Source: Polyangiaceae bacterium (GTDB lineage Bacteria > Myxococcota_A > Polyangia > Polyangiales > Polyangiaceae). From it: DNA of 64,000 bases. The notes beneath the pieces are model-generated. The model made no database searches and had not been told where the DNA came from. It saw only the letters and a list, made by a program, of their open reading frames with translations. The translations under genes were made by a program, and so were the position numbers. This document shows, piece by piece, positions 2,731-46,520 of this stretch; the stretch's first letter is position 1; every line of letters starts with the position of its first letter. The DNA lies in NCBI GenBank assembly GCA_033763455.1, contig JANRKO010000019.1:128001-192000 (forward strand), in the 5' to 3' direction.

Positions 2731-4084
2731 ACGAAAACTCTTTGGAACTGATGGTATTCGCGGCGAAGCTAACGTCTTCCCGATGACGCCAGAGCTTGCC
2801 CTCACTCTCGGCCGCGCGATCGCGCTGGTAGCAAGGCGAGGGCACGACCGAGCCACCCGCATTGTGATCGGTAAAGACACGCGTCTAAGCGGCTACATGC
2901 TGGAAACGGCGCTCGCCTCAGGGATCTGCGCCATGGGCGGCGTGGTAATGCTCTGTGGGCCAATCCCCACCCCGGCCGTTGCCAATCTCACCCAATCGAT
3001 GCGCGCGGACGCAGGCGTTGTGATCAGCGCCAGCCACAATCCTTTCCAAGATAACGGCATTAAGATCTTTGGCCCTGATGGCTTCAAGCTTCCCGATCAC
3101 GAGGAGCTCGAAATCGAGCATTTGCTGGAAGATCCCAAGCTGATAACTTCAGGTTTTTCCGGAGTTGGCATCGGGCGAGCCCAACGCATCGACGACGCCG
3201 CTGGCCGCTATGTGGTGTCGGCGAAGGCCACATTCCCTAAAGAGCTCACTTTGGATGGCTTGCGCATTGTGGTCGATGCAGCTCATGGCGCCGCCTATCG
3301 CGTCGCTCCCGCCGTTTTCTCCGAACTGGGCGCCAACGTGGTGAGCCTTGGAGTGCGCCCGAATGGTCGAAATATCAACGATAATTGCGGCGCTCTGCAC
3401 CCCGACATGTTGGCTAGCGAGGTCCTCAAAAATGACGCTCACATCGGCATTGCCTTAGACGGTGACGCTGACCGCGTGATCATCGTCGATGAAAAGGGCA
3501 ACGTGGTGGACGGTGACGCCGTGATGGCACTTTGCGCGACTCGGCTCTTGAGCGCAGGGCGTTTGGCCAAGAACACTTTGGTTGCCACAGTTATGAGCAA
3601 TATTGGCCTAGAGCGTGCGATGCGGAAGGCCGGAGGGCAGCTAGTCCGCACCGCTGTTGGAGACCGCTACGTAGTCGAAGAGATGCGGCGCTCCGGTTAC
3701 TCACTGGGCGGCGAACAATCCGGACACCTGGTGTTCCTTGATCATGCCACCACCGGTGACGGAATTGTGGCGGCACTTCAGGTTCTCTCGATCATGGTCG
3801 CTGAAGGCAGCCTTGTGAGCGATCTTGCCAAGATCATGGAGCGCGTCCCGCAGGTTCTGGAAAGCGTCAGAATGCCTTCGCGCAAGCCCGTGAGCGATAT
3901 GCCAAGGCTTTCAGCACTCATTGCCGAGGTTGAGCGTCATTTGGCCGGAGAAGGCCGAGTGCTCGTGCGTTGGAGCGGTACTGAAGCCAAGCTTCGCTTC
4001 ATGGTGGAAGGTCCGGATACTGACGCCCTCAACGGCTTCGTAGCTGACATGGCCGAGGCCGCAGCCGAAGATCTCAGCGCCTAA
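2723..4084 (+). CDS. glmM: Phosphoglucosamine mutase
   Basis: [29 protein letters not shown]. Confidence 0.96.
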
Positions 4085-37624: not shown

Positions 37625-39069
37625 ATCACCGGAAGTGCTCTAAGCTGGGCTTTCGTTTTCTGATCTTGCCAGGGCAGGTGCCGCGTGGGTTCCACGAGCT
37701 CAGCGGCCAAGGAATTTTTGAAAGCGCGCAGAATGCGAACCTCGCAGACTTCCCCCACTGGGCTCGTGGTTGCCCAAAAGTGCACAATTTCGTTGCGTTC
37801 GGTGCGGCCTGTGTAGCCACCGCGCTGATTCAACCCCTCCACCAACACCTGCTGAGTGGTACCGATAAGGCTCGTCAGGTGCGCAATCCGTGCCCGCTCA
37901 ACCACATCAAACAACTCAGCCAAACGCCGAGCTTTTTCGGGCTCCGGCACGTCATCTTCCAGCTTGAGCGAAGGCGTGTGTGGCCGCGGTGAATACTTGA
38001 AACCAAAAAGCCCAACAAACCCAACTTTTTCAACGAGCTCTAACGTCGCCTGAAAATCCTCGAGCGTCTCTCCCGGAAAACCGACGATCACGTCGGTTGA
38101 AAGAGTCATCCCAGGCACCGAGTCCCTGAGGGCTGTGATGCGCTCAAGGTACTCTTCGGCACTGTAGCGCCGAATCATCTTCTTAAGCAGGCGGTCGCTG
38201 CCTGATTGCACAGGCATATGCACGTGTTTGGCGAGGATCGGTATCTCGGTGTGTGCCGAAATCAAGCGCGCTGTAAGGTGGCGCGGGTGCGGGCTCGTGT
38301 AGCGTAAGCGCAAAAGGCCCGGCACTTGGCGAGCAATCGCGTGCAAGAGTGCAGGGAATTCGCTTTCTGCCTCGTTGGCTCGAAGGTGCGGAGCTTGACG
38401 GAATTCGAGTGCCGAGGGCGGTGCAGCCGGCAGGCTTCCGGAAGGGTCGCGGTAGCTGTTCACCGTTTGCCCGAGTAGCGTCACTTCCTTCACCCCCGCC
38501 AAAACCAGCCGTTCGATCTCGTCTAAGATCTCTCTGGATGGGCGGTAGCGTTCTGGCCCGCGAGTGTATGGCACCACACAATACGAGCAGCGCTCATCGC
38601 ACCCCTTCATCACGGTTACGAAAGCGCTCGGCATGACTTTGCCCGCCTCGGGGCGTGCTTGCAGGAATTCAGGTGCGTCGAGATCGAACTCGGTGCGAAC
38701 CTGCGGAGGCGACCCGGCCTCCGCGCGGGCTAAAAGGGTGGGAAGCTCCGCAATGTTGTCCGGCCCGATCACGATGTCGATCTGCGGGAGCGTCTTGATG
38801 AGGCGTTCGCCTTCTTGTTGGGCCACGCAACCGGCAACGCCAATCAGGAGGCCGGGCCGCTCACGCTTGAGCAGGCCCAAACGCCCCACTTCACTGCGTA
38901 GCTTCTGTTCGGCTTTCTCTCGCACGCTGCACGTGTTCAGGAGCACCACGTCCGCCTCTTCGAGCTTCTCGGTCGCCCAATATCCGGCGCCCGTGAGCAC
39001 TTCGGAGAGGCGCTCTGAATCGTGGCTGTTCATCTGGCAGCCGAAGGTAATGACACTGAAAGCGGGCAT
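37621..39069 (-). CDS. miaB: tRNA methylthiotransferase MiaB
   Basis: TFGCQMN, NTCSVREKAE, GCDERCSYCVVPYTRG, C-terminal TRAM. Confidence 0.95.
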   Translation of the reverse strand: MPAFSVITFGCQMNSHDSERLSEVLTGAGYWATEKLEEADVVLLNTCSVREKAEQKLRSEVGRLGLLKRERPGLLIGVAGCVAQQEGERLIKTLPQIDIVIGPDNIAELPTLLARAEAGSPPQVRTEFDLDAPEFLQARPEAGKVMPSAFVTVMKGCDERCSYCVVPYTRGPERYRPSREILDEIERLVLAGVKEVTLLGQTVNSYRDPSGSLPAAPPSALEFRQAPHLRANEAESEFPALLHAIARQVPGLLRLRYTSPHPRHLTARLISAHTEIPILAKHVHMPVQSGSDRLLKKMIRRYSAEEYLERITALRDSVPGMTLSTDVIVGFPGETLEDFQATLELVEKVGFVGLFGFKYSPRPHTPSLKLEDDVPEPEKARRLAELFDVVERARIAHLTSLIGTTQQVLVEGLNQRGGYTGRTERNEIVHFWATTSPVGEVCEVRILRAFKNSLAAELVEPTRHLPWQDQKTKAQLRALPVM

Positions 39070-39210
39070 GGCCGGGCCCCTATAGCACGCAATCCGGGAC
39101 GGCCAGCCCCGGGCCCAAAGGGCTGGACCGCGGGAGCGGATTGACCGGCTCGGGCACGCTTCCTATCTTCCCGGAGTCCCGAAAATCCCGTCAATTTCTG
39201 GAGGAGCACT

Positions 39211-40974
39211 ATGGATCCCGAATACGCGAATCTCGTCGAACTGTTCGAGCAAGCCTGCGCCAAGTTCGATGCTCGCGAGTTGTTCGGAACCAAGCGGGGT
39301 GGCCGCTGGGAGTGGATGACGTTCGGGCAGTTCAAGGCCGACGTGGATAAGTGCCGGGGCGGCCTCGCGCAGCTGGGAGTGAGAGCCGGGGATAAGGTGG
39401 CGATAATCTCCAATAATCGCGTGGAATGGGCGGTGTTGGCGTACGCCACCTATTCGCTCGGGGCGGTTTACGTACCGATGTATGAAGTACAGCCCAAGGA
39501 TGAATGGGCTTTCATCTTGCATGATTCCGACGCCAAAGTGGTGGTCGCAGCGACTCGGGTGATTGCGGAAACGTTGGAAGGCTTGCGAACCGGCTGTCCC
39601 AAGTTGGAAAAGATCATCAGCTTGGAGGGCCCCGGTGGCTCCCTCTCTTACGAAGCCCTGCTCAGCCAGGGCGCCAGAACACCCAAAGATCCCGTGTATC
39701 CAGCGTCGAGTGAGGTTGCCGGCTTCATCTACACGTCGGGCACCACCGGGATGCCCAAGGGCGTAGTCCTCTCGCACTCGAACATCTGCTTCGACATTTG
39801 GGCCTCATTTTCCTGTTTTGACTTTGGCCCGCTAGACCGCTCGTTAGCGTTTTTGCCCTGGGCACACTCTTACGGCCAAGTAGCAGAGCTGCACGGGCTC
39901 CTTAGCCGCGGCACCTCGATCGCGATCAACGACGAGGTACCAAACCTCGTCGCCAACTTGGCCGAGGTGCGGCCAACCGTGCTGGTTGCCGTACCAAGGA
40001 TCTTTAACCGCATCTACGACGGCATCCAGAAACAGATGGCGGCCAAGCCGGGCGCCATTCGCGCGTTGTTCAAAAAAGGCGTCGACGTAGCCGGAAAAAA
40101 GAGCCGGGGTGAGAGAATTGGCACGCTCGATAGCATGGCCCACGCCTTGGCGGATAAGCTCATTTTCTCCAAGGTTCGAGCCAAATTCGGCGGCCGGTTG
40201 CGGTTTGTGGTGAGCGGAAGCTCGGCACTCAACAAAGACGTCGCCATGTTCATCGATGCGCTCGGAATCGAGGTTTATGAAGGATACGGCCTCAGCGAAA
40301 CGAGCCCCGTGGCAGCGAGCAATTACCCCGGGCACCGCAAGATCGGCAGCGTTGGCCTACCGCTACCAGGCGTCGAAATTCGTATTGATAAGAGCGTTTC
40401 CGATGATAACCACCAGGGGGAGATCTTGATCAAAGGTCGCAATGTAATGCAAGGTTATCACAATCGCCCGGAAGAAACGGCCCTAGTACTCCCAGGTGAC
40501 GGTTACCTCCGCACAGGAGATCTCGGCTACCTTGATGAAGACGGTTACCTCTTCATCACTGGGCGCCTGAAAGAGCAATACAAGCTGGAAAACGGTAAAT
40601 ACGTGGCGCCGGCACCGCTCGAAGAGGACCTCAAGCTTTCGCCGTTCATTCTAAATGCCATGCTGTACGGCGCCAACCACGCCTACAATGTGGCCCTCAT
40701 CGTGGTCGACAAAGTAGCAGTTGCCGAGTGGGCCAAAGAAAATGGCGTTGAACTAGGGGACCTCTCGAAGAACCAGAAGCTGAACGAACTTCTGTTTCGT
40801 GAGATTGAGACCTATGGGTCTAAATTCAAGAGCTTCGAGCGGCCCAAGAAGCTCTTCATCACCGACGAAGATTTTAGTACAGAAAATGAGCTTCTAACCC
40901 CATCCCTCAAGATCAAACGGCGCAATGTGTTGGCCAAATATGGCAAACAATTAGAGGCACTCTATTCGGAGTAA
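39211..40974 (+). CDS. Long-chain fatty acid--CoA ligase
   Basis: YTSGTTGMPKG, EGYGLSET, TGDLG, LTPSLKIKR. Confidence 0.92.
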   Translation: MDPEYANLVELFEQACAKFDARELFGTKRGGRWEWMTFGQFKADVDKCRGGLAQLGVRAGDKVAIISNNRVEWAVLAYATYSLGAVYVPMYEVQPKDEWAFILHDSDAKVVVAATRVIAETLEGLRTGCPKLEKIISLEGPGGSLSYEALLSQGARTPKDPVYPASSEVAGFIYTSGTTGMPKGVVLSHSNICFDIWASFSCFDFGPLDRSLAFLPWAHSYGQVAELHGLLSRGTSIAINDEVPNLVANLAEVRPTVLVAVPRIFNRIYDGIQKQMAAKPGAIRALFKKGVDVAGKKSRGERIGTLDSMAHALADKLIFSKVRAKFGGRLRFVVSGSSALNKDVAMFIDALGIEVYEGYGLSETSPVAASNYPGHRKIGSVGLPLPGVEIRIDKSVSDDNHQGEILIKGRNVMQGYHNRPEETALVLPGDGYLRTGDLGYLDEDGYLFITGRLKEQYKLENGKYVAPAPLEEDLKLSPFILNAMLYGANHAYNVALIVVDKVAVAEWAKENGVELGDLSKNQKLNELLFREIETYGSKFKSFERPKKLFITDEDFSTENELLTPSLKIKRRNVLAKYGKQLEALYSE

Positions 40975-41061
40975 GCCCAATACCCCCGAAACCTAAACTA
41001 GCGACGGAAGCCAGCTTTGATTTCGGGGGTTGTGCTTGTGGCACGTGGTCAGCTTTCGCCA

Positions 41062-42174
41062 TCATGCGCCACTCTTGCCGTTGGTGAGAAGCTGCGCCGG
41101 GAGCAGTGATTGGAGCCCGTCGGCCCCAACCACCACCTTCACTTCTTGGATGTGCTGAGCGATCTCTTTCATCGCTTCCAGCTCCTTCAAGCGCAAAAGT
41201 ACCGGGTTTGCCTCCATAACCTTGGCCGTGTTCGCCAACGACCGCGTAGCGGCCGTTTCTTCACGACGTAAGATCACGTTGGCCGCAGCTTCCTTTTCGG
41301 CCTCGATCACGCGATTCAACAGGGCTTTCATTTCACCCGGCAAAACCACGTCTTTGACACCCACATGTTCGATCTTGACTCCCAGCGCCGTGGTGCATGC
41401 CGTAACCCGTCGCTCCATGAAGCGTGTCATTTCGTCACGCCCTTCGAGCAATTGATCGAGGGTTACCCCGGCCACGTATTCACGCGCGGCAAGCTGGGCT
41501 GCCGTGTAGACAGAATCCCGTAGGTTCTGCACCTTGGTTGCAACCACCACCGGATCAGAAACAGCGTATTCGGCCGTTAACGTCAAACGCAACGTCACCT
41601 TATCTCGCGTCATCAATTCCTGACCAGCAATGGTTACTTCCTGGCGCCGCATATCCACGACGCCAATCTCGGCCTTGGCTCCAGGGTGCGTCCACAACTT
41701 GTATCGGCCCGGCGGCAACACAGAAACGAAGCGCCCCTGCTCGTAACGCAAGCCCATTTGGTAGGCCAATACCGTTACGTCAATGTACTCATTGGACGGA
41801 ATCAACCGCTCCAACTCTGCCGACATTTCCGGCAAAGGCTGAGTAACATCGAACACCGAAAGCTGCACAGAAGCATCTACGGTCCAATAACGGTGCACCC
41901 CCGGGCGCAAAAATGCCACCGGCACACCATCTTTGAACAGGACACCTCGTTCACCAGAACCAATCACAACCTCACGAAACCAAGCAGAAGGCAGTTTTGC
42001 CCGGACTTCCGGCAGGGCTGAAAACAGCAAAACACTGGTATCGAACCGTTGCTCAGTGAGCCGCAACGACCAAACCCGATAACGGCCCGGGCCAAGTGCA
42101 GCTACAGGTAAGCCGTCCTTGAAAAGAACCACTCGTTCGTTTAACTTCACACGAATCAATTTTGACCACAACAT
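41062..42174 (-). CDS. SPFH/band-7 (slipin family) protein
   Basis: Three ER..LF.DG...L.PG.Y repeats; GQELMTRDKVTLRL; REETAATRSLANTAK..E.NPVLLRLKELE; GAGG SD. Confidence 0.9.
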   Translation of the reverse strand: MLWSKLIRVKLNERVVLFKDGLPVAALGPGRYRVWSLRLTEQRFDTSVLLFSALPEVRAKLPSAWFREVVIGSGERGVLFKDGVPVAFLRPGVHRYWTVDASVQLSVFDVTQPLPEMSAELERLIPSNEYIDVTVLAYQMGLRYEQGRFVSVLPPGRYKLWTHPGAKAEIGVVDMRRQEVTIAGQELMTRDKVTLRLTLTAEYAVSDPVVVATKVQNLRDSVYTAAQLAAREYVAGVTLDQLLEGRDEMTRFMERRVTACTTALGVKIEHVGVKDVVLPGEMKALLNRVIEAEKEAAANVILRREETAATRSLANTAKVMEANPVLLRLKELEAMKEIAQHIQEVKVVVGADGLQSLLPAQLLTNGKSGA

Positions 42175-42189
42175 GGGTCACCTCTTGGG

Positions 42190-42652
42190 TTGATGGACTC
42201 CCACCTTCGGCGTGAGCACCATGCCCGCGCCTTTGGAGATCGTCGATTGCTGGTATTTGCCGATACCGTCGGCTTTCGGCGAGCCCGCCTTTGGCCCTAG
42301 TAGTAGGGAGAACGGGACTCGGAAGATGTGCGGGGGCTCTGCAGACTGCTTGAGCCCGAAATTAGTGGCTCCAGAGGTTCAAAGCCCGGCGCCTAGGTTG
42401 AAGCGCAGTGTGAAGCCGCCGTAGCGGCCTCCGAAACGCTTCTCGCTTGAGCGTCTTGGGTCCGATGATTTGCGCGAAATCACTGCGATCTCACCCGGTT
42501 GCAGTCAGCGGGCGCCGAGGCGATGGCCGAAGCTTGCGAGCGAAATGTACGTGAGTTTGGGCAAAACTCGGGTCCGTTCGCCTTCCCCCAATGGCTGCGG
42601 AAGGGCTTTGAAAACCTCTGGAAACCTGGTGTGAATGCCTTTTTAAGGCCAG
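42190..42652 (-). ncRNA. Putative large structured ncRNA / 5' leader of the slipin gene
   Basis: 18-bp long-range helix (42603-42622 with 42370-42387) plus many hairpins, including GCCGC-UACG-GCGGC; no credible ORF. Confidence 0.55.
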
Positions 42653-42653
42653 G

Positions 42654-42722
42654 CCCTTTGCTCTACCCGATGAGCTACAACTCCGTGAGGAGAAGATCGG
42701 ATTCGAACCGACTACCGAAGGG
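42654..42722 (-). ncRNA. Circularly permuted tRNA-like module (YrlA/Y-RNA-like architecture)
   Basis: CCCTT-CGGTA-GTCGG TTCGAAT CCGAT-CTTCTCC TCAC GGAGTTG-TA-GCTC ATCGGGTA GAGC-A-AAGGG: T arm, closed acceptor stem, D arm, anticodon-like stem. Confidence 0.75.
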
Positions 42723-42724
42723 TT

Positions 42725-42864
42725 CTGCCGTGACAGGGCAGTGTCATCCATGACAAGCATGCTTCCGGGACACAACTACCGGACATCCATCGGTGACTCA
42801 CGAGGAGACCAATGCACGCAGTGTTGCGCCGTTTTGAAGCAAGCTTCGCGGGATTCGAACCCGC
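42725..42864 (-). ncRNA. Rearranged tRNA-Asp(GUC)-like element
   Basis: T arm GCGGG TTCGAAT CCCGC (42864-42848) lies upstream of a D-like hairpin and the anticodon arm CTGCC CTGTCAC GGCAG (42741-42725). Confidence 0.5.
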
Positions 42865-42866
42865 GG

Positions 42867-42940
42867 CACACAAGGCAAGATTCGAACTTGCACTCTACTG
42901 ATATAGAATCAGCGGCCTCTACCTTTTGGGCTACATGTGT
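42867..42940 (-). tRNA. tRNA or tRNA-like gene with CUA anticodon (amber suppressor-like)
   Basis: ACACATG TA GCC CAAAAGGTAGA GGC C GCTGA TTCTATA TCAGT AGAGT GCAAG TTCGAAT CTTGC CTTGTGT G; 6/7 acceptor pairs; no encoded CCA; U37 atypical. Confidence 0.75.
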
Positions 42941-42993
42941 TAATTGGTTGCATACGGTTGGTCCTCTTGCTTTGAATATCGAGCCGGGAAATG

Positions 42994-43025
42994 AAAAAAG
43001 CCGCCGAGGTAACCCTGGGCGGCTT
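42994..43025 (-). terminator. Rho-independent terminator (attenuator)
   Basis: AAGCCGCC CAGG GTTA CCTC GGCGGCTT TTTT. Confidence 0.85.
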
Positions 43026-43050
43026 CACACAGAAACACTGCGTAAACGCC

Positions 43051-43179
43051 CTAGGGGGAGCCCCGAAAATCGCGAAAATTGCCGACTAAGCTGCGCTCGC
43101 GGCGTGCACCACAGACGAAAGCCATGCCAAGATTTGGCAGCTGTTGTGCTGTGATGGTGAAACGGTGGAAGTGCTTCAT
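43051..43179 (-). CDS. Putative leader/attenuator peptide (42 aa)
   Basis: MKHFHRFTITAQQLPNLGMAFVCGARRERSLVGNFRDFRGSP-TAG between promoter and terminator; stop codon lies within the antiterminator strand. Confidence 0.6.
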   Translation of the reverse strand: MKHFHRFTITAQQLPNLGMAFVCGARRERSLVGNFRDFRGSP

Positions 43180-43190
43180 GAGGAGGCCGC

Positions 43191-43218
43191 AGAGTACGGA
43201 TCTAGAAAAACAAGTCAA
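43191..43218 (-). promoter_or_regulatory. Sigma70-type promoter
   Basis: TTGACT-16 nt-TACTCT, ending 11 nt before the leader ATG. Confidence 0.6.
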
Positions 43219-43304
43219 CACAATATCGCTCAGGCGTGTTTTTTTTACGAGGTGACGTTGCTCGCGATCCTCATTTCAAAGCTCCACCATGCAACACAGA
43301 GTCC

Positions 43305-43997
43305 CTAGAGGCGAGCCGTCCAGACGCGTTCAGCGCTGCCGGGGCGAGTCACGAACAAGCGCAGTGTTACCGGAGCCCGTTCACCCATGAGATAAAGCAC
43401 GCGGATTTTGTGCTCCCCGGGAGCCAGCGGGATGCTGCCCATCGCATTATGAGCCTTCCTGCTGTCGTCGTTGTTCACGACTTGGCGGCCATTAATCCAC
43501 AGGATGGCGGCGCCCTGGGTCTTTAACCGAAACTTATAGTTGCCAGCCGCCGAAACGGAGAATCTGCCAGTGTAGTTAATGGCAAACCAGTCGTAGCGCT
43601 CGGCGATTCCTGGGAAACCCGAAAAGTAGCGCTGAGCTACGTCCAAGCTATCCACGAACAAGCGACCTTGCGGGATGCACCGTTCAAGGCGCAGCAAAGA
43701 CACTGTGTTAGGCTTAACAAAGCACACTGTACCCGCGAGCGCTGCTTTGCGGCTGTGGCCAAACAAGGTGCTCCCCGACACCACAGGTACGCGACCACCT
43801 TTGTGACTCGCCCAACGCTCGCCCATGCCAGCGGGCGTGCCGCCTTGCTCGACACCGTACCCGTCCATTCTGTTGCGGCTAGCAGTTCGGATCCGTTCCC
43901 CCAACGACTGACCATGGGCCGCGCCAGCTAAGCTCAGCACTCCAAGTGCCACGCGACTCCCCCACTTCCACAACGTCCCGATCACCATGCGTTTCAC
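43305..43997 (-). CDS. Secreted PA14 domain protein
   Basis: Signal peptide; FAINYTG.F....GNYKFRL...GAAILWING..VV.ND. Confidence 0.75.
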   Translation of the reverse strand: MKRMVIGTLWKWGSRVALGVLSLAGAAHGQSLGERIRTASRNRMDGYGVEQGGTPAGMGERWASHKGGRVPVVSGSTLFGHSRKAALAGTVCFVKPNTVSLLRLERCIPQGRLFVDSLDVAQRYFSGFPGIAERYDWFAINYTGRFSVSAAGNYKFRLKTQGAAILWINGRQVVNNDDSRKAHNAMGSIPLAPGEHKIRVLYLMGERAPVTLRLFVTRPGSAERVWTARL

Positions 43998-44151
43998 TTC
44001 ACTAGCACAAGTGCCCAGTGGACCGCGCCATCAGCTAAGACATGCTGTGGAAACAATTAAGCAAACTGCCCGAAAACCCTAGAGAAATCCTGACATTTCG
44101 AGTGCTGGTTTCCCTTGCTATGCCGGGAGCGGGCGTCTATCTCCGTGACTC

Positions 44152-45603
44152 ATGGATCTCAAACACTACGAAGTGGATCCGAAGAGTTACGACGAAATGT
44201 TCGACGCGAGCGGCGAGGTTCGGCCGGCCTATCGGGAACTTGCGCGGCGGCTCGGCGAAATGTCCGGTGAAGATTTCACCCGGCGGCAACGCACGGCAGA
44301 TATCTTGCTGCGAAACCAGGGCGTCACGTTCACCGTGTACTCGGACGACGCGGGCATTGAGAAGGTTTTTCCGTTCGACCCCATCCCGCGCCTGATGCCT
44401 GCCGAAGAATGGAGCCTGATTGAACGCGGCTTGATTCAGCGCATTGAGGCCTTGAACCTTTTCATTGCTGACATCTATGGGGATCAACACATCCTCAAAG
44501 ACAAAGTGGTTGATCCTGAGCTCATCTTAGGCGCCTCATTTTTCCGCCGTGAGATGATGGGGTTTAGGCCGCCTCGTGGGATCTATACCCACATCACCGG
44601 CACAGATTTAATTCGCGATGCCAACGGAAAATTCGTCGTCCTAGAAGACAATGCTCGGAACCCAAGCGGCGTGAGCTACGTGCTTGAATGCCGCGCAGTT
44701 CTGAAACGTGTCTTCCCGCTCTTGTTCGAAACGTACGGAGTGCGCCCGGTTGAAGATTACGCCAATTGGCTCCGCGACATGATGCAATTTGTAGCGCCAC
44801 GAGGCTCATCCAATCCAAGCATGGTGGTGCTGACGCCGGGCATCTACAATTCGGCGTACTTCGAACACAGCTTTTTAGCCCGCCAAATGGGTGTACCGCT
44901 CGTCGAAGGTCGAGATTTGGTCGTAAAAGATGGAATGGTGTGCATGCGCACGATTACCGGGCTGCAGCGGGTGGATGTTATCTACCGGCGCCTGGATGAT
45001 GACTTTCTGGACCCACTTATCGGTCGCCCTGATTCGGTATTGGGCTGCGCGGGGCTTTTCTCGGCGTATCGCAGTGGGGCGGTGACGCTCGTGAACGCAC
45101 CAGGCACAGGCGCCGTGGACGATAAAGCTGTCTACCCGTTCGTGCCGGACATGATTCGTTATTATCTTAAGAGTGAACCTATCATTGACAACGTTCCAAC
45201 CTATTTGGCAACCCGCCCGGATGAGCAGAAGTACATGCTCGAGAATATCCACGAACTGGTGATCAAACAGACCGACGCTTCCGGCGGCTACGGCATGTTG
45301 ATTGGCACGCACTCTACGGCAGAGGAACGCGAAGACTTCAAACGGCGCATCAAGGCTAAGCCCCGCTCCTACATTGGCCAACCCACTATCAGTCTCGGCA
45401 AACATCCCACAGTAATCGACGGTAAGCTGGAAGGGCGGTGCGTCGATTTGAGGCCTTATGTCCTTTATGGCGAGCGAATTTCGGTCATTCCAGGAGCCCT
45501 CACCCGGGTGGCACTCAGGAAGGGCTCTCTCGTTGTTAATTCAAGCCAAGGTGGTGGCTACAAAGATACCTGGGTGCTCACTGATAAGGGAGGCGCAGCC
45601 TAA
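44152..45603 (+). CDS. Circularly permuted type 2 ATP-grasp protein
   Basis: [52 protein letters not shown]. Confidence 0.93.
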
Positions 45604-46520
45604 TGTTAAGCCGAGTTGCAGACGCCCTTTATTGGATGAGCCGTTACGTCGAACGTGCTGAGCACGCAGCACGTGTCCTCGAGGTCACACGCCGCATGTT
45701 GATCGACGTTGAGCCCCTCGCCCCTCAAATGGCCAAACGCATTCGGGACGACGCATTTCGCAGCTTGGGCCTTCCGGGCGTCGACTTGCACGGAGCCATC
45801 TTCGACGAATCAGAGCCTGGGTCTATCGCCTCCTCTGTCTTCAGAGCCCGAGAGAATGCTCGTCAGGTGCAGGAGGTTATTAGCTCGGAGATGTGGGGCT
45901 ATATCAACGAGACGCACTGGATGCTCTCGGAGGCCCGTCGGGCGGGGCCTTCGCGTGAGCTGCCAGACCTCTTGGGTGAAGTAGTAAAGGCTGGGTTTCT
46001 TTGGGCTGGGGTTACGGATGCCACTATGGGTCGCGGGCCTGGTTGGTTGTTTATTCGCCTGGGCCAGTTCGTTGAACGAGCGGACCGAACGAGTCGAATT
46101 TTTGCGGCACAATGGGAGGCCATCGAGGAGTTGAGTACTGAGGCCATCCACACCTCGGGCGATCACTTTGCCTGGCTCACATTGCTTCGGAGTTGCGGAT
46201 CGCTTGAGGAGTATAGGAAGCGGTACCCAACACGCATGACAGCACGGCAAGTGGCGGATTTTATGCTGCTAGACGACACCTTTCCGCGCACCGTGCGCTA
46301 CTCAGTCTCAGTTGCGGCCGAATTTTCAAAACGCTTAACCCAGTTCGCAAGCCCCGAACGCGCCCGCGCTGAACGCGCGTTTGGGAGAGTCGCTTCTCGC
46401 ATCGAATACACCACCATCGACGAAGTTATGGAGACCGGCCCAGCTGTGTTCGTGAGAGGCGTTGCAGAAGAGATCTTGCTGGCGACAGCCGAGCTCCAGA
46501 GCGCGTATTTCTTGCACTAA
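45603..46520 (+). CDS. Alpha-E domain protein
   Basis: [35 protein letters not shown]. Confidence 0.92.
   Translation: MLSRVADALYWMSRYVERAEHAARVLEVTRRMLIDVEPLAPQMAKRIRDDAFRSLGLPGVDLHGAIFDESEPGSIASSVFRARENARQVQEVISSEMWGYINETHWMLSEARRAGPSRELPDLLGEVVKAGFLWAGVTDATMGRGPGWLFIRLGQFVERADRTSRIFAAQWEAIEELSTEAIHTSGDHFAWLTLLRSCGSLEEYRKRYPTRMTARQVADFMLLDDTFPRTVRYSVSVAAEFSKRLTQFASPERARAERAFGRVASRIEYTTIDEVMETGPAVFVRGVAEEILLATAELQSAYFLH

Follow-up and report, generated by a model that had tools for sequence, protein, structure and literature searches.

Burroughs and Aravind reportedly predicted in 2016 that Band-7 proteins pair with tRNA-like RNAs. Their 'band 7-associated tRNA', or b7a-tRNA, is described in Wang et al. 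2018 (bioRxiv 10.1101/312249), whose passages on this RNA add that YrlA 'occasionally' adjoins a Band-7 protein gene and that the Band-7/tRNA-like RNA pair had never been validated experimentally. Y RNAs are 80-130 nt long; the sections of Chen et al. 2014 (PMC4201824) on their detection take as criterion that a YrlA lies no more than 4 kb from a same-strand Ro60/TROVE gene, and warn of tRNA-tRNA junctions as false positives. L-arrays, in the account of PMC8421152, have an HNH gene upstream and rtcB neighbours and are induced when translation is impaired. Such a response of spare tRNA arrays is known in one cyanobacterium, Anabaena PCC 7120, where 9-nt repeats overlying the promoter exert the control (Santamaria-Gomez et al. 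2021, PMC8421152); the relevant main text of that paper makes no mention of band 7, SPFH, attenuation, leader or tRNA-like elements.

The 2016 prediction and the L-arrays are thus already known. The literature search found no paper joining tRNA arrays to leader peptides or attenuation, nor 'b7a-tRNA' to arrays, and as far as that search went the attenuator and the composite RNA described below, and their link, appear to be new; Burroughs and Aravind 2016 may cover part of this. Because relatives carry arrays of up to 30 tRNAs, and because the same leader precedes arrays that have no slipin gene, the most fitting view of the locus is that of a reduced tRNA-array operon. We give slightly better than even credence to its being a minimal, island-borne tRNA-array ('L-array'-type) stress operon of Polyangia with a ribosome-dependent attenuator.

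The locus and its island

The locus lies on the minus strand of the window (the whole 64-kb stretch of DNA analysed). A sequence-only reading had placed there, in order, a promoter, a leader ORF, a terminator, a tRNA(CUA), a permuted tRNA-like module, a structured RNA and a slipin gene, and this order was confirmed:

40966-44131, no strand: island with all parts of the locus and a PA14-domain gene (43997-43305)
43191-43218, minus: promoter-like site, TTGACT (43218-43213), 16 nt, TACTCT (43196-43191)
43051-43179, minus: leader ORF, ATG at 43179, 42 codons, TAG at 43053-43051; near-leaderless, 11 nt after the -10 box
43038-43057, minus: stop-codon motif CCCCUAGGGCG..., 5' strand of the predicted anti-terminator
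42994-43025, minus: terminator hairpin and U6, stem AAGCCGCCCAGG/CCUCGGCGGCUU, -19.4 kcal/mol
42865-42940, minus: tRNA, anticodon CUA (ARAGORN; Rfam tRNA 50.3 bits, cut-off 29)
42847-42866, minus: orphan T-arm hairpin, from the sequence, directly 3' of tRNA(CUA)
42724-42846, minus: conserved 5' domain (ACGGCGC..., hairpin, GUGUCCGG...GUGUCCC), by eye across 38 upstream stretches
42653-42723, minus: circularly permuted tRNA-like module (closing stem, T arm, closed acceptor-like hairpin, D arm)
42370-42621, minus: large structured domain, ~250 nt, with long-range helix 42621-42603 / 42386-42370
42572-42460, minus: inner arm of the large domain, apical hairpin 42528-42508
42455-42388, minus: second arm of the large domain
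42260-42272, minus: hairpin CCGACGGUAUCGG, upstream of the ribosome-binding site of slipin
41062-42174, minus: slipin (SPFH/Band_7) gene, 370 aa (Pfam Band_7 3.2e-29, residues 135-306)

Leader, tRNA(CUA), RNA and slipin gene are all held in a 3.2-kb island of this genome. In three same-genus genomes the island is missing, and the flanks (38000-40965 and 44132-45986) are only 128-178 nt apart. The GC content of the island resembles that of the flanks, and a check of its ends for flanking repeats found no convincing direct repeats. The window had been noted to have no RtcB, Ro/TROVE or RtcR, and a search of the genome for rtcB and TROVE had been suggested; carried out on the whole assembly (93.67% complete), the search found neither of these, nor RtcR. 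Any repair role would therefore need another ligase.

Like the published Band-7/b7a-tRNA module, the locus has a slipin-type Band_7 gene next to a predicted tRNA-like RNA. It differs from that module, as far as the published description sets the two apart, in that RtcB, RtcR and a sigma-54-like site are absent and control lies with a leader ORF and a terminator, in that a permuted YrlA-type module is fused to ~400 nt of further conserved structure, and in that the RNA-slipin pair is embedded in tRNA arrays.

The leader and the tRNA arrays

The unit of promoter, ORF, stop motif and terminator is common to 19 places, with scores of 54-78 bits against the leader model R2 (65.6 bits for 43090-42988 of the window); these counts exclude three regex matches in coding DNA (L028_8879, L048_8381 and L080_5485). 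The leader and terminator proposed from the sequence thus behave as a conserved attenuator-like unit, and the promoter, 42-aa leader ORF and strong terminator lie where they had been placed, in a layout conserved in relatives. The promoter layout TTGACN, 16-19 nt, TAnnnT/A/C was found by regex in 11 of the 19 leaders, 9 of which also have a start codon 9-14 nt past the -10 box. A consensus promoter and terminator scan of 40800-43600 returned 0 sites of either kind; on our reading it misses the locus elements because only 3 positions of the 6 in the -10 hexamer match and because the tool counts more than 8 nt in the loop of the hairpin. What supports the promoter and the terminator is instead their conservation in relatives.

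In 18/18 leaders (L057, truncated by the locus end, was left out) the frame leading into the conserved stop stays open over 30 codons or more; for the other two frames this holds in 11/18 and 10/18, which is moderate evidence in GC-rich DNA, where frames stay open by chance. The stop codon is TAG in 18 of the 19 leaders and TAA in one; the peptide is poorly conserved and regulatory codons do not stand out. The motif GGAGG-N7-9-UAGGCGG is conserved as sequence across leaders, and in 18/19 the stop motif is predicted to form at least 6 pairs with the terminator's 5' strand. Predicted energies in the window are -25.8 kcal/mol for the anti-terminator fold vs -19.4 kcal/mol for the terminator. On alignment A5 the anti-terminator has 80.3% of cells paired vs 28-49% when slid, and it lacks covariation because its columns are nearly invariant; for several leaders single-sequence shuffles match its pair number in a sizeable share of trials. 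The terminator has 87.7% of cells paired on A5, with 6 invariant pairs and one (98-126) that is AU in 13 sequences and GC in 6. A T-box or other known leader family was rejected, since an Rfam search of the leader (E up to 10) gave no family above chance.

Attenuators like those of trp and pheL, and leader peptides that sense translation inhibitors, couple a short ORF to an intrinsic terminator and to an alternative pairing overlapping that ORF. The leader here likewise has a short ORF, a terminator and a predicted ORF-overlapping alternative pairing, but its sensing element is apparently the stop-codon region, there is no run of regulatory codons, and the genes placed under it encode tRNAs and a noncoding RNA. 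The leader fits a ribosome-dependent attenuator that would be switched on by slow translation.

Scans with ARAGORN and Rfam, which had also been suggested, find the expected CUA-anticodon tRNA at 42940-42865; it is the sole Rfam match at gathering score in the window, YrlA staying below its cut-off. This tRNA, of class-I length, is homologous to the 'Leu' (CAA/CAG) tRNAs of the arrays, and its anticodon is unique among the genome's 46 tRNAs, the other 45 being an ordinary set. Its oddities are a U at position 37, a G at 73, a U6-U67 mismatch and 46% GC; read by eye against the homologue at locus L022, its T stem and anticodon stem are kept via two-sided changes. The orphan T-arm hairpin beside it, in whose region R1 (the model built for the permuted module) has a partial match of 21.8 bits (42875-42827), by eye also follows the last tRNA in many relatives (L022, L023, L034, L041, L044, L057). 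The 'Asp-like tRNA pieces' seen earlier at 42754-42696 did not hold up: they give only a partial Rfam tRNA match (20.3 bits, E 0.6), were rejected as tRNA remnants, and belong to the conserved 5' domain.

Same-strand tRNA genes occur at 26 of 80 slipin loci, with the RNA-slipin pair at the array end; at 10 of the 80 there are at least 10 such tRNAs within 4 kb, and the maximum is 30. R2 matches also immediately precede tRNA arrays in 6 further genome loci that have no slipin nearby. A small HNH gene lies near 14/80 related loci and RtcB within 4 kb at 3/80, and RtcB is present somewhere in the genome of all five other carriers of a slipin orthologue. Leader, RNA and slipin also occur together in array-less relatives (L021, L023, L035, L041, L064). 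In the published features of L-arrays (PMC8421152), the likeness extends to the relatives' dense same-strand tRNAs (up to 30), small HNH gene and occasional rtcB, and to supernumerary tRNAs with a patchy, island-like spread: the CUA tRNA is extra and the island is missing from three congeners. Unlike L-arrays, the window holds one tRNA in 64 kb and no HNH gene in the island (the sole homologue in this genome, at 44% identity, is on contig C16), and a leader and terminator stand in place of the promoter repeats of the Anabaena array. A conserved leader would be a different, directly ribosome-coupled array switch.

The composite RNA and the slipin

The dense hairpins (~400 nt) that had been read from the sequence are supported by folding and by comparison. 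The 507 nt at 42866-42360 fold at -209.1 kcal/mol (z -4.71; 0/100 shuffles as good), and the large domain covaries in 13 sequences. When the window's upstream kilobase was compared with the 80 loci by blastn, only short patches matched; MAFFT and RNAalifold on all 30 full-length RNAs recovered the module alone, and the large domain took a 13-sequence subgroup.

The permuted tRNA-like module stands at 42723-42653 as proposed. It scores 72.4 bits against its own model R1, in the range of other loci, and 27.4 bits (E 0.004; cut-off 69) against Rfam YrlA, over model positions 23-85; in this window its acceptor-like stem has two U-U mismatches. The suggested covariation test upstream of slipin homologues gave strong covariation: in alignment A3 (30 sequences) 94.2% of cells are paired vs 67.9% in shuffles and 165 show double changes vs 54.5, values reached in 0/500 shuffles, and 14 of the 20 pairs have changes on both sides. 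YrlA-like matches (30.1-45.9 bits, positions 23-85/88) lie upstream of all 5 slipin orthologues among 40 relatives, the window's score being the lowest of the six loci (27 vs 30-46 bits). By hand count an R1 module is at the expected place in ~70 of 77 loci with upstream DNA, leaving out L079, where the match is inside an ORF; 39 of them reach at least 57 bits. Across 41 whole genomes, R1 scores of at least 63 bits are confined to the slipin loci in the 6 orthologue-carrying genomes. These results support the RNA and slipin as a conserved pair in Myxococcota. Whole-genome R1 matches at or below 56 bits were set aside as tRNA-tRNA junctions (for example contig C17 of this genome, with a 4-tRNA cluster).

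Like YrlA (Rfam RF02553), the module is an inside-out tRNA with a T arm, a closed acceptor-like stem and a D arm, and its own ends lie at the anticodon-stem position. Unlike YrlA, it falls below the gathering score, lacks a Ro60/TROVE gene both in its neighbourhood and elsewhere in the genome, and is not enclosed by a 5'/3' terminal stem but precedes a separate closed domain; the whole RNA is ~500 nt long, vs 80-130 nt for Y RNAs as given in PMC4201824. In the 5 other carriers, TROVE searches turned up only two short stretches, both on contigs other than that of the locus, one at 25 bits and one below the cut-off. The YrlA-type motif GNCGAAN0-1G, a proposed Rsr contact, was found by eye once, as GGCGAACG in the large domain (~42576-42569), which is not near the 5' end of the RNA and not aligned in relatives.

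In the 5' domain a GUCCGG-type motif recurs (by eye). One metatranscriptome run yielded a single 163-nt contig covering 42689-42851, a weak hint of transcription, as DNA carry-over is possible. In the large domain RNAalifold gave 59 pairs in 13 sequences, 85.5% paired vs 71.5% in shuffles and 35-43% in slid versions, with 124 double-change cells vs 48.6 (0/500 shuffles), the structure being derived from the very sequences used for counting. The long-range closing helix reappears in the single-sequence fold. The tract after it is weakly U-rich in this window (CCACUAAUUUC), and CCG(A/G)CGGnnnCGG is aligned in 15/30 rows of alignment A2, the window included.

The earlier identification of the slipin gene (ORF 42174-41062) is secured by its Band_7 match. 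The orthologues are 59-69% identical, and the window's ORF is intact with all invariant columns of alignment A1. The nearest Atlas clusters are the 'slipin family' and the 'PA4582 family'; NCBIfam gave only weak HflK matches below cut-off. An AlphaFold2 model (pLDDT 76.8) predicts three beta repeats, an SPFH domain and a long helix; residues 4-174 are modelled as beta strands only, and an N-terminal helix or membrane segment is absent from the model. Its structural matches are stomatin (Z 16.6), HflK/C, prohibitin and major vault protein (Z 11-12). Folded alone, the N-terminal repeats had no Foldseek match at E <=0.001; at E 0.1-0.7 they matched only beta parts of SPFH, ~45 residues long.

In the vault particle, major vault protein (repeats, an SPFH-like shoulder and a cap helix) is joined by vault RNA and the TROVE protein TEP1. 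The predicted slipin fold likewise has beta repeats N-terminal to SPFH followed by a long helix, and a dedicated noncoding RNA is encoded beside it. The likeness is limited: the match to major vault protein (residues 131-321 of the model) is mostly to the SPFH part, and the two alignments that include the N-terminal repeats have an rmsd of 12.5 A.

The distance from the closing helix to the slipin ATG, counted on the sequences, is ~31-49 nt in L024, L027 and L064, which leaves scant room for a separate slipin promoter; with a spacer of ~195 nt and a weak U tract, an internal promoter is possible in this window. Homologues in E. coli and Burkholderia are likewise preceded by T-arm or tRNA-like elements, which follow a sigma-54-like TGGCAC...TCGC site. 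That Band-7 proteins are linked to RtcB/Ro loci and to tRNA-like RNAs, as had been noted at the outset, is documented in the corresponding part of Wang et al. 2018 (bioRxiv 10.1101/312249).

What the locus may do

From the arrangement of the parts we infer that the leader is translated and that a single transcript starts at the sigma-70-like promoter and passes first through a ribosome-dependent attenuator. When translation is fast, a ribosome at the UAG stop would cover the motif, the terminator would form and transcription would stop. When ribosomes are slow, scarce or starved of tRNA, the motif would be free to pair with the terminator's 5' strand, allowing read-through. The product would carry the tRNA (in relatives a whole spare set) and then the ~500-nt RNA, made up of the orphan T arm, the 5' domain, the YrlA-type inside-out tRNA, the ~250-nt closed domain and the U-rich tract; slipin mRNA would arise by partial read-through past this RNA. 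Slipin itself would be a soluble SPFH protein of the PA4582/'slipin' family, which is found in RtcB RNA-repair operons, and most likely binds the tRNA-like RNA as a ring or cage scaffold acting on damaged tRNA or ribosomes. Induction by translation stress, a tRNA-decoy role and an SPFH cage that holds RNA had been suggested at the outset, and we still infer them in the same conditional sense.

The island might instead be the decaying remnant of a tRNA-array operon, in which tRNA(CUA), the neighbouring orphan T arm and the tRNA-like pieces are debris and at most slipin still works. Its absence from three same-genus genomes, the single tRNA left where relatives have up to 30, the weak U tract past the closing helix and the lack of RtcB in the genome would all suit decay. 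So would the U37, G73, U6-U67 mismatch and 46% GC of the tRNA, but its T and anticodon stems have been kept via two-sided changes. Similarly, the lowest YrlA score of the six loci and the two U-U mismatches are offset by an R1 score in the normal range, an R2 score of 65.6 bits, a whole RNA that folds at z -4.71 and a slipin ORF with every invariant column. Decay is unlikely. Leader, RNA and slipin recur without tRNAs in several relatives, arguing that the array-less form is a recurrent state rather than a one-off wreck. It is very unlikely that we are dealing with an ordinary Y RNA of the YrlA type, one that does without slipin (acting with PNPase, say, or some other partner) and adjoins its gene only through shared regulation. 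Its tRNA-like part does match the YrlA model in all six loci, but always under the Rfam cut-off; high R1 scores are confined to slipin loci, TROVE is absent from this genome and at most short, weak stretches in the other five, and the extra conserved domains bring the RNA to ~500 nt, beyond the range given for Y RNAs in PMC4201824.

One might also ask whether the leader senses ribosomes at all, since it could terminate an upstream unit constitutively, encode a small protein, or be an RNA element to which a protein or a tRNA binds. We regard this as quite unlikely. The always-on terminator would silence the array, given that the hairpin directly precedes its first same-strand tRNA, and Rfam has no above-chance match to the leader, T-box included. 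Open frames do arise by chance in GC-rich DNA, but a UAG stop in 18/19 and regex-found promoters 9-14 nt ahead of a start codon in the conserved-stop frame speak against the non-sensing reading. In favour of it are an anti-terminator that lacks covariation, and a GGAGG-N7-9-UAGGCGG motif conserved at the sequence level in the manner of a binding site for protein or RNA.

To return to the attenuated tRNA-array operon, the occurrence of tRNA arrays, HNH, RtcB, YrlA-like RNA and slipin in one operon type argues for a single rescue system for damaged tRNA pools. A long shot is that Polyangia possess a 'translation-damage kit' with a UAG-timing leader, spare tRNAs, a vault-like slipin RNP and feedback by the CUA tRNA. 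The leader ORF may then report how promptly ribosomes reach its UAG stop and so gate the spare-tRNA operon; soluble slipin assembled around the ~500-nt RNA may capture or present damaged tRNAs or ribosomes; and the retained tRNA may read the leader's own UAG, so that stop read-through crosses the terminator and locks the operon on.

Three questions become testable in this way, namely the RNA-slipin pair, the switching of arrays and the unity of the rescue system. The Band-7/tRNA-like RNA pair in particular is open to experiment: the clade has ~200 loci, the covariation is strong, and one carrier, Labilithrix luteola DSM 27648 (L057), is in culture.

The host is a soil or sediment myxobacterium. 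Parts of the stretch are contained in 11 DNA metagenome runs, in which the uncovered parts are uninformative.

Layout of the locus and its island

The locus is a real and conserved unit of several parts, and its mechanism is what we infer from them. The order proposed in the sequence-only reading (promoter, leader ORF, terminator, tRNA with a CUA anticodon, permuted module, structured RNA, slipin gene, all on the minus strand) is borne out by the sequence itself and by ARAGORN, Rfam and Pfam. The elements, in window positions, are as follows.

43218-43191, minus strand: promoter-like site TTGACT-16 nt-TACTCT (sequence)
TAG at 43053-43051, minus strand: leader ORF of 42 codons, its ATG 11 nt past TACTCT (sequence)
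43025-42994, minus strand: terminator hairpin AAGCCGCCCAGG/CCUCGGCGGCUU, then U6 (sequence)
42940-42865, minus strand: tRNA with anticodon CUA (ARAGORN; Rfam tRNA, 50.3 bits)
42866-42847, minus strand: orphan T-arm hairpin (sequence)
42720-42656, minus strand: match to the YrlA tRNA-like core, 27.4 bits against a family cut-off of 69 (Rfam)
42174-41062, minus strand: Band_7 protein (slipin), 370 aa (Pfam, 3.2e-29)

About 120 nt lie between the orphan T arm and the YrlA-like core, and about 480 nt between the core and the Band_7 gene. The tRNA(CUA) is the sole Rfam match within the 64 kb that reaches the gathering score, and a simple scan for promoter and terminator consensus sequences made no calls at the locus. 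The 'Asp-like tRNA pieces' described earlier amount to a partial Rfam tRNA match (E 0.6) and are not counted. The reported lack of RtcB, Ro/TROVE and RtcR in the window extends to the whole assembly (G000, 93.67% complete), a search of which found no TROVE, RtcB or RtcR.

In three genomes of the same genus, the flanks of window 40966-44131 are only 128-178 nt apart, and therefore the whole unit plus a gene for a PA14-domain protein constitutes a 3.2-kb island. The PA14-domain protein (230 aa; 43305-43997, minus strand; Pfam 1.7e-08) is likewise absent from the three congeners, and its N terminus reads like a signal peptide. A 21-nt inverted repeat with 81% complementarity and a 7-nt loop (40982-41030) separates the slipin gene from a convergent AMP-binding (acyl-CoA ligase-like) gene and is likely a two-way terminator. 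The island is adjoined by ORFs of 483 and 305 aa (44152-46520, plus strand), which by their sequence style presumably resemble a circularly permuted ATP-grasp and alpha-E pair.

A structured RNA paired with slipin

The RNA and slipin are a conserved pair. Five of 40 related genomes contain a slipin orthologue (61-70% identity), and none was found in the three same-genus genomes searched. In all five orthologue genomes, a YrlA-like match of 30-46 bits lies on the same strand, 330-480 nt upstream of slipin. With one genome scanned per species, 207 slipin relatives were identified, and the best 80 of them are used for locus counts. Labilithrix luteola is among these 80, and all the others carry the label of a Myxococcota lineage or are unclassified 'delta/Proteobacteria' MAGs.

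The permuted tRNA-like module, as aligned from 30 sequences, folds into a 4-bp closing stem, a T arm, a closed 7-bp acceptor-like hairpin and a D arm. The expectation of conserved structure upstream of slipin homologues is upheld by this alignment: 94.2% of cells are paired compared to 67.9% in shuffles, both-side changes occur in 165 cells compared to 54.5 (none of 500 shuffles being as high), and the covariation score is 0.673 versus 0.07-0.10 in slid controls. The model built from the 30 sequences (R1) scores 72.4 bits in the window. Among the best 80 of 207 relatives, 77 loci have upstream DNA, and in about 70 of these (hand count) R1 places a module at a distance of 250-750 nt 5' of slipin, with at least 57 bits in 39 of those roughly 70 and just 16-38 bits in loci of the Kofleriaceae/Haliangiales type. 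When 41 whole genomes were searched, scores of at least 63 bits were confined to the slipin loci of the six genomes with an orthologue, the window's own included. Matches of 56 bits or less elsewhere in the 41 genomes are tRNA-tRNA junctions and not modules, a false positive described in Chen et al. 2014 (PMC4201824). Extra strong matches (51-71 bits) are found far upstream of slipin in three relatives (locus L038, 2549-2616; L039, 417-490; L057, 2723-2821 and 3132-3217), which in some loci may reflect an additional module or else DNA inserted between the module and slipin.

The module is one part of a longer RNA. On its 3' side an anticodon-arm-like hairpin precedes a long-range helix, formed in the window by 42621-42603 with 42386-42370 and reading NCCGAGAGC.../...GCUCUCGGN in relatives, where it is followed by a U-rich tract. 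The domain that this helix encloses contains several helices and a conserved apical hairpin, GGCCAUCGU..ACGGCGAUCGCC. An RNAalifold structure from 13 aligned sequences has 59 pairs in the large domain, with 85.5% pairing (71.5% in shuffles, 35-43% slid) and 124 double-change cells compared to 48.6 in shuffles (0/500), support that is overstated because those 13 sequences also served to derive the structure. The 'dense hairpins' noted after the module are matched by this domain across relatives and by the fold of 507 nt in the window (z -4.71), in which the same closing helix is present. Inspection by eye also shows conservation over the roughly 120 nt 5' of the module, which comprise the orphan T arm, ACGGCGC..., a hairpin and GUGUCCGG...GUGUCCC. 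A 163-nt contig from one metatranscriptome run spans 42689-42851, a weak hint.

The AlphaFold2 model of slipin (pLDDT 76.8) contains three five-stranded beta repeats (residues 4-45, 66-109 and 130-174), followed by an SPFH domain and then a long helix (280-338); an N-terminal helix is absent from the model. In structural comparisons the model comes closest to stomatin, prohibitin, HflK/C and QmcA (Z 14-16.6, residues 118-305), with the major vault protein next (Z 11-12, residues 131-321). Two matches span the N-terminal repeats, at an rmsd of 12.5 A, and the repeats folded alone gave no significant structural match.

The leader and a putative attenuator

The arrangement of promoter, leader ORF and terminator upstream of a tRNA is not peculiar to the window. 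The terminator hairpin recurs at 19 places (the window and 16 loci, two of which have two copies), just 5' of the first array tRNA or, in loci lacking an array, about 250 nt before the module. A TTGACN-16-19 nt-TAnnnT/A/C promoter was found by regex in 11 of the 19 leaders, and in nine of those a start codon follows 9-14 nt past it. Of 18 leaders, all 18 stay open over 30 codons or more in the frame that the conserved stop closes, compared to 11/18 and 10/18 for the other frames; the leader peptides are poorly conserved. At three places the leader/terminator unit is repeated in tandem, as two or three copies ahead of a tRNA array (L093, 135-538; L098, 1104-1527; contig C14 of genome G008, 41808-43284).

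The stop codon, UAG in 18 of 19 leaders and UAA in one, sits within the motif GGAGG-N7-9-(C)CUAGGCGG. This motif is a near-repeat of the terminator 3' strand, and its pairing with the terminator 5' strand is predicted in 18/19 leaders; in the window, the predicted anti-terminator has an energy of -25.8 kcal/mol and the terminator -19.4. In the leader alignment, pairing reaches 87.7% in the terminator, which shows some covariation, and 80.3% (28-49% slid) in the predicted anti-terminator, which shows none because its columns barely vary. The proposed mechanism is that a prompt ribosome at the UAG would cover the anti-terminator strand, allowing the terminator to form. Slow, scarce or tRNA-starved ribosomes would leave that strand free, and the anti-terminator could then form, so that tRNAs, structured RNA and slipin mRNA would be made.

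The distance from the closing helix to the slipin ATG is only about 31-49 nt in L024, L027 and L064, which favours partial read-through as a means of co-transcription. The window has a spacer of about 195 nt and a weak U tract, so slipin may have a promoter of its own there.

The model of leader and terminator (R2) gives 65.6 bits for the window; at the other 18 places from which it was built, the range is 54-78 bits. In the cultured carrier Labilithrix luteola DSM 27648 (L057), a leader of 64 bits by R2 is accompanied by tRNAs, modules, slipin and HNH. In whole genomes, it also matches six loci directly 5' of same-strand tRNA arrays (beginning Tyr-Lys-Gln-Asn or similar) in a genome or contig without slipin, and thus the leader is a general 5' element of these arrays.

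On the RNA strand, the terminator 5' strand (GUGUGAAGCCGCC, 43018-43030) and the second arm of the large domain (GGCGGCUUCACAC, 42408-42420) are perfect complements over 13 nt; about 0.09 such pairs are estimated by chance in 3.4 kb, and no equivalent was seen by eye in L021 or L041.

tRNA arrays, known systems and distant homologues

Among the best 80 of 207 relatives, same-strand tRNA genes (ARAGORN) lie within 4 kb of slipin in 26 loci, with one tRNA always about 620-800 nt 5' of the slipin ATG. At least 10 such tRNAs are present in 10 of the 80 (30 in L030, 29 in L048, 26 in L051), 14 have a small HNH endonuclease (PF14279/PF01844), and RtcB is within 4 kb of slipin in three. This combination of tRNA arrays, HNH and RtcB is that of L-arrays, which are horizontally spread, hold as many as 43 tRNA genes preceded by an HNH gene, have rtcB nearby, and in Anabaena are induced by impaired translation (PMC8421152). 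A term search of the main text of that paper found no mention of Band 7/SPFH, tRNA-like RNAs, leaders or attenuation. The window itself is not an L-array; G000 has an ordinary set of 46 tRNAs and no tRNA array. RtcB is present somewhere in the genome of all five other carriers of slipin.

The tRNA(CUA) is homologous to unusual class-I-length 'Leu' tRNAs of the arrays with anticodon CAA or CAG, and CUA is a single change from CAA. By reading, its T stem and anticodon stem are preserved relative to L022 via both-side changes. The Leu-anticodon tRNAs of the arrays (CAA, CAG, UAA, AAG) are 76-78 nt long, lack a long variable arm and have in common the D arm GUAGCCCAAYUGGCAGAGGC; they are found in L022, L025, L026, L028-L030, L032, L037, L052, L054 and L057.

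The association of Band-7 proteins with RtcB/Ro loci and tRNA-like RNAs, which the sequence-only reading gave as known, is in print. According to Wang et al. 2018 (bioRxiv 10.1101/312249), a 'band 7-associated tRNA' adjoining Band-7 proteins and RtcB was predicted by Burroughs and Aravind 2016 and was then unvalidated, and a Band-7 protein is occasionally adjoined by YrlA. The window RNA departs from YrlA in its family score and with respect to Ro60, and the unit departs from the Band-7/b7a module solely in RtcB adjacency. No report of tRNA arrays joined with leader peptides or attenuation was found in the literature searched. As far as these searches reach, the new features are a slipin/tRNA-like RNA pair embedded in Myxococcota tRNA arrays, the composite RNA of about 500 nt, and a putative leader-ORF attenuator with its stop codon inside the anti-terminator; part of this may already be contained in Burroughs and Aravind 2016.

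In the Atlas, slipin is grouped with clusters named 'slipin family' and 'PA4582 family', which come from several phyla. Homologues on E. coli and Burkholderia replicons (33-41% identity) lie behind a sigma-54-like TGGCAC...TCGC site, and upstream of them are elements resembling a T arm or a tRNA, one of which has a GAAA tetraloop in its anticodon arm; the E. coli homologue has a nucleotidyltransferase gene downstream. The site, TGGCACGCT(T/C)CTCGC, opens the slipin loci L114 (E. coli, 3455-3470) and L115 (Burkholderia cenocepacia, 3481-3496), where it would fit RtcR-type control of the tRNA-like RNA and slipin.
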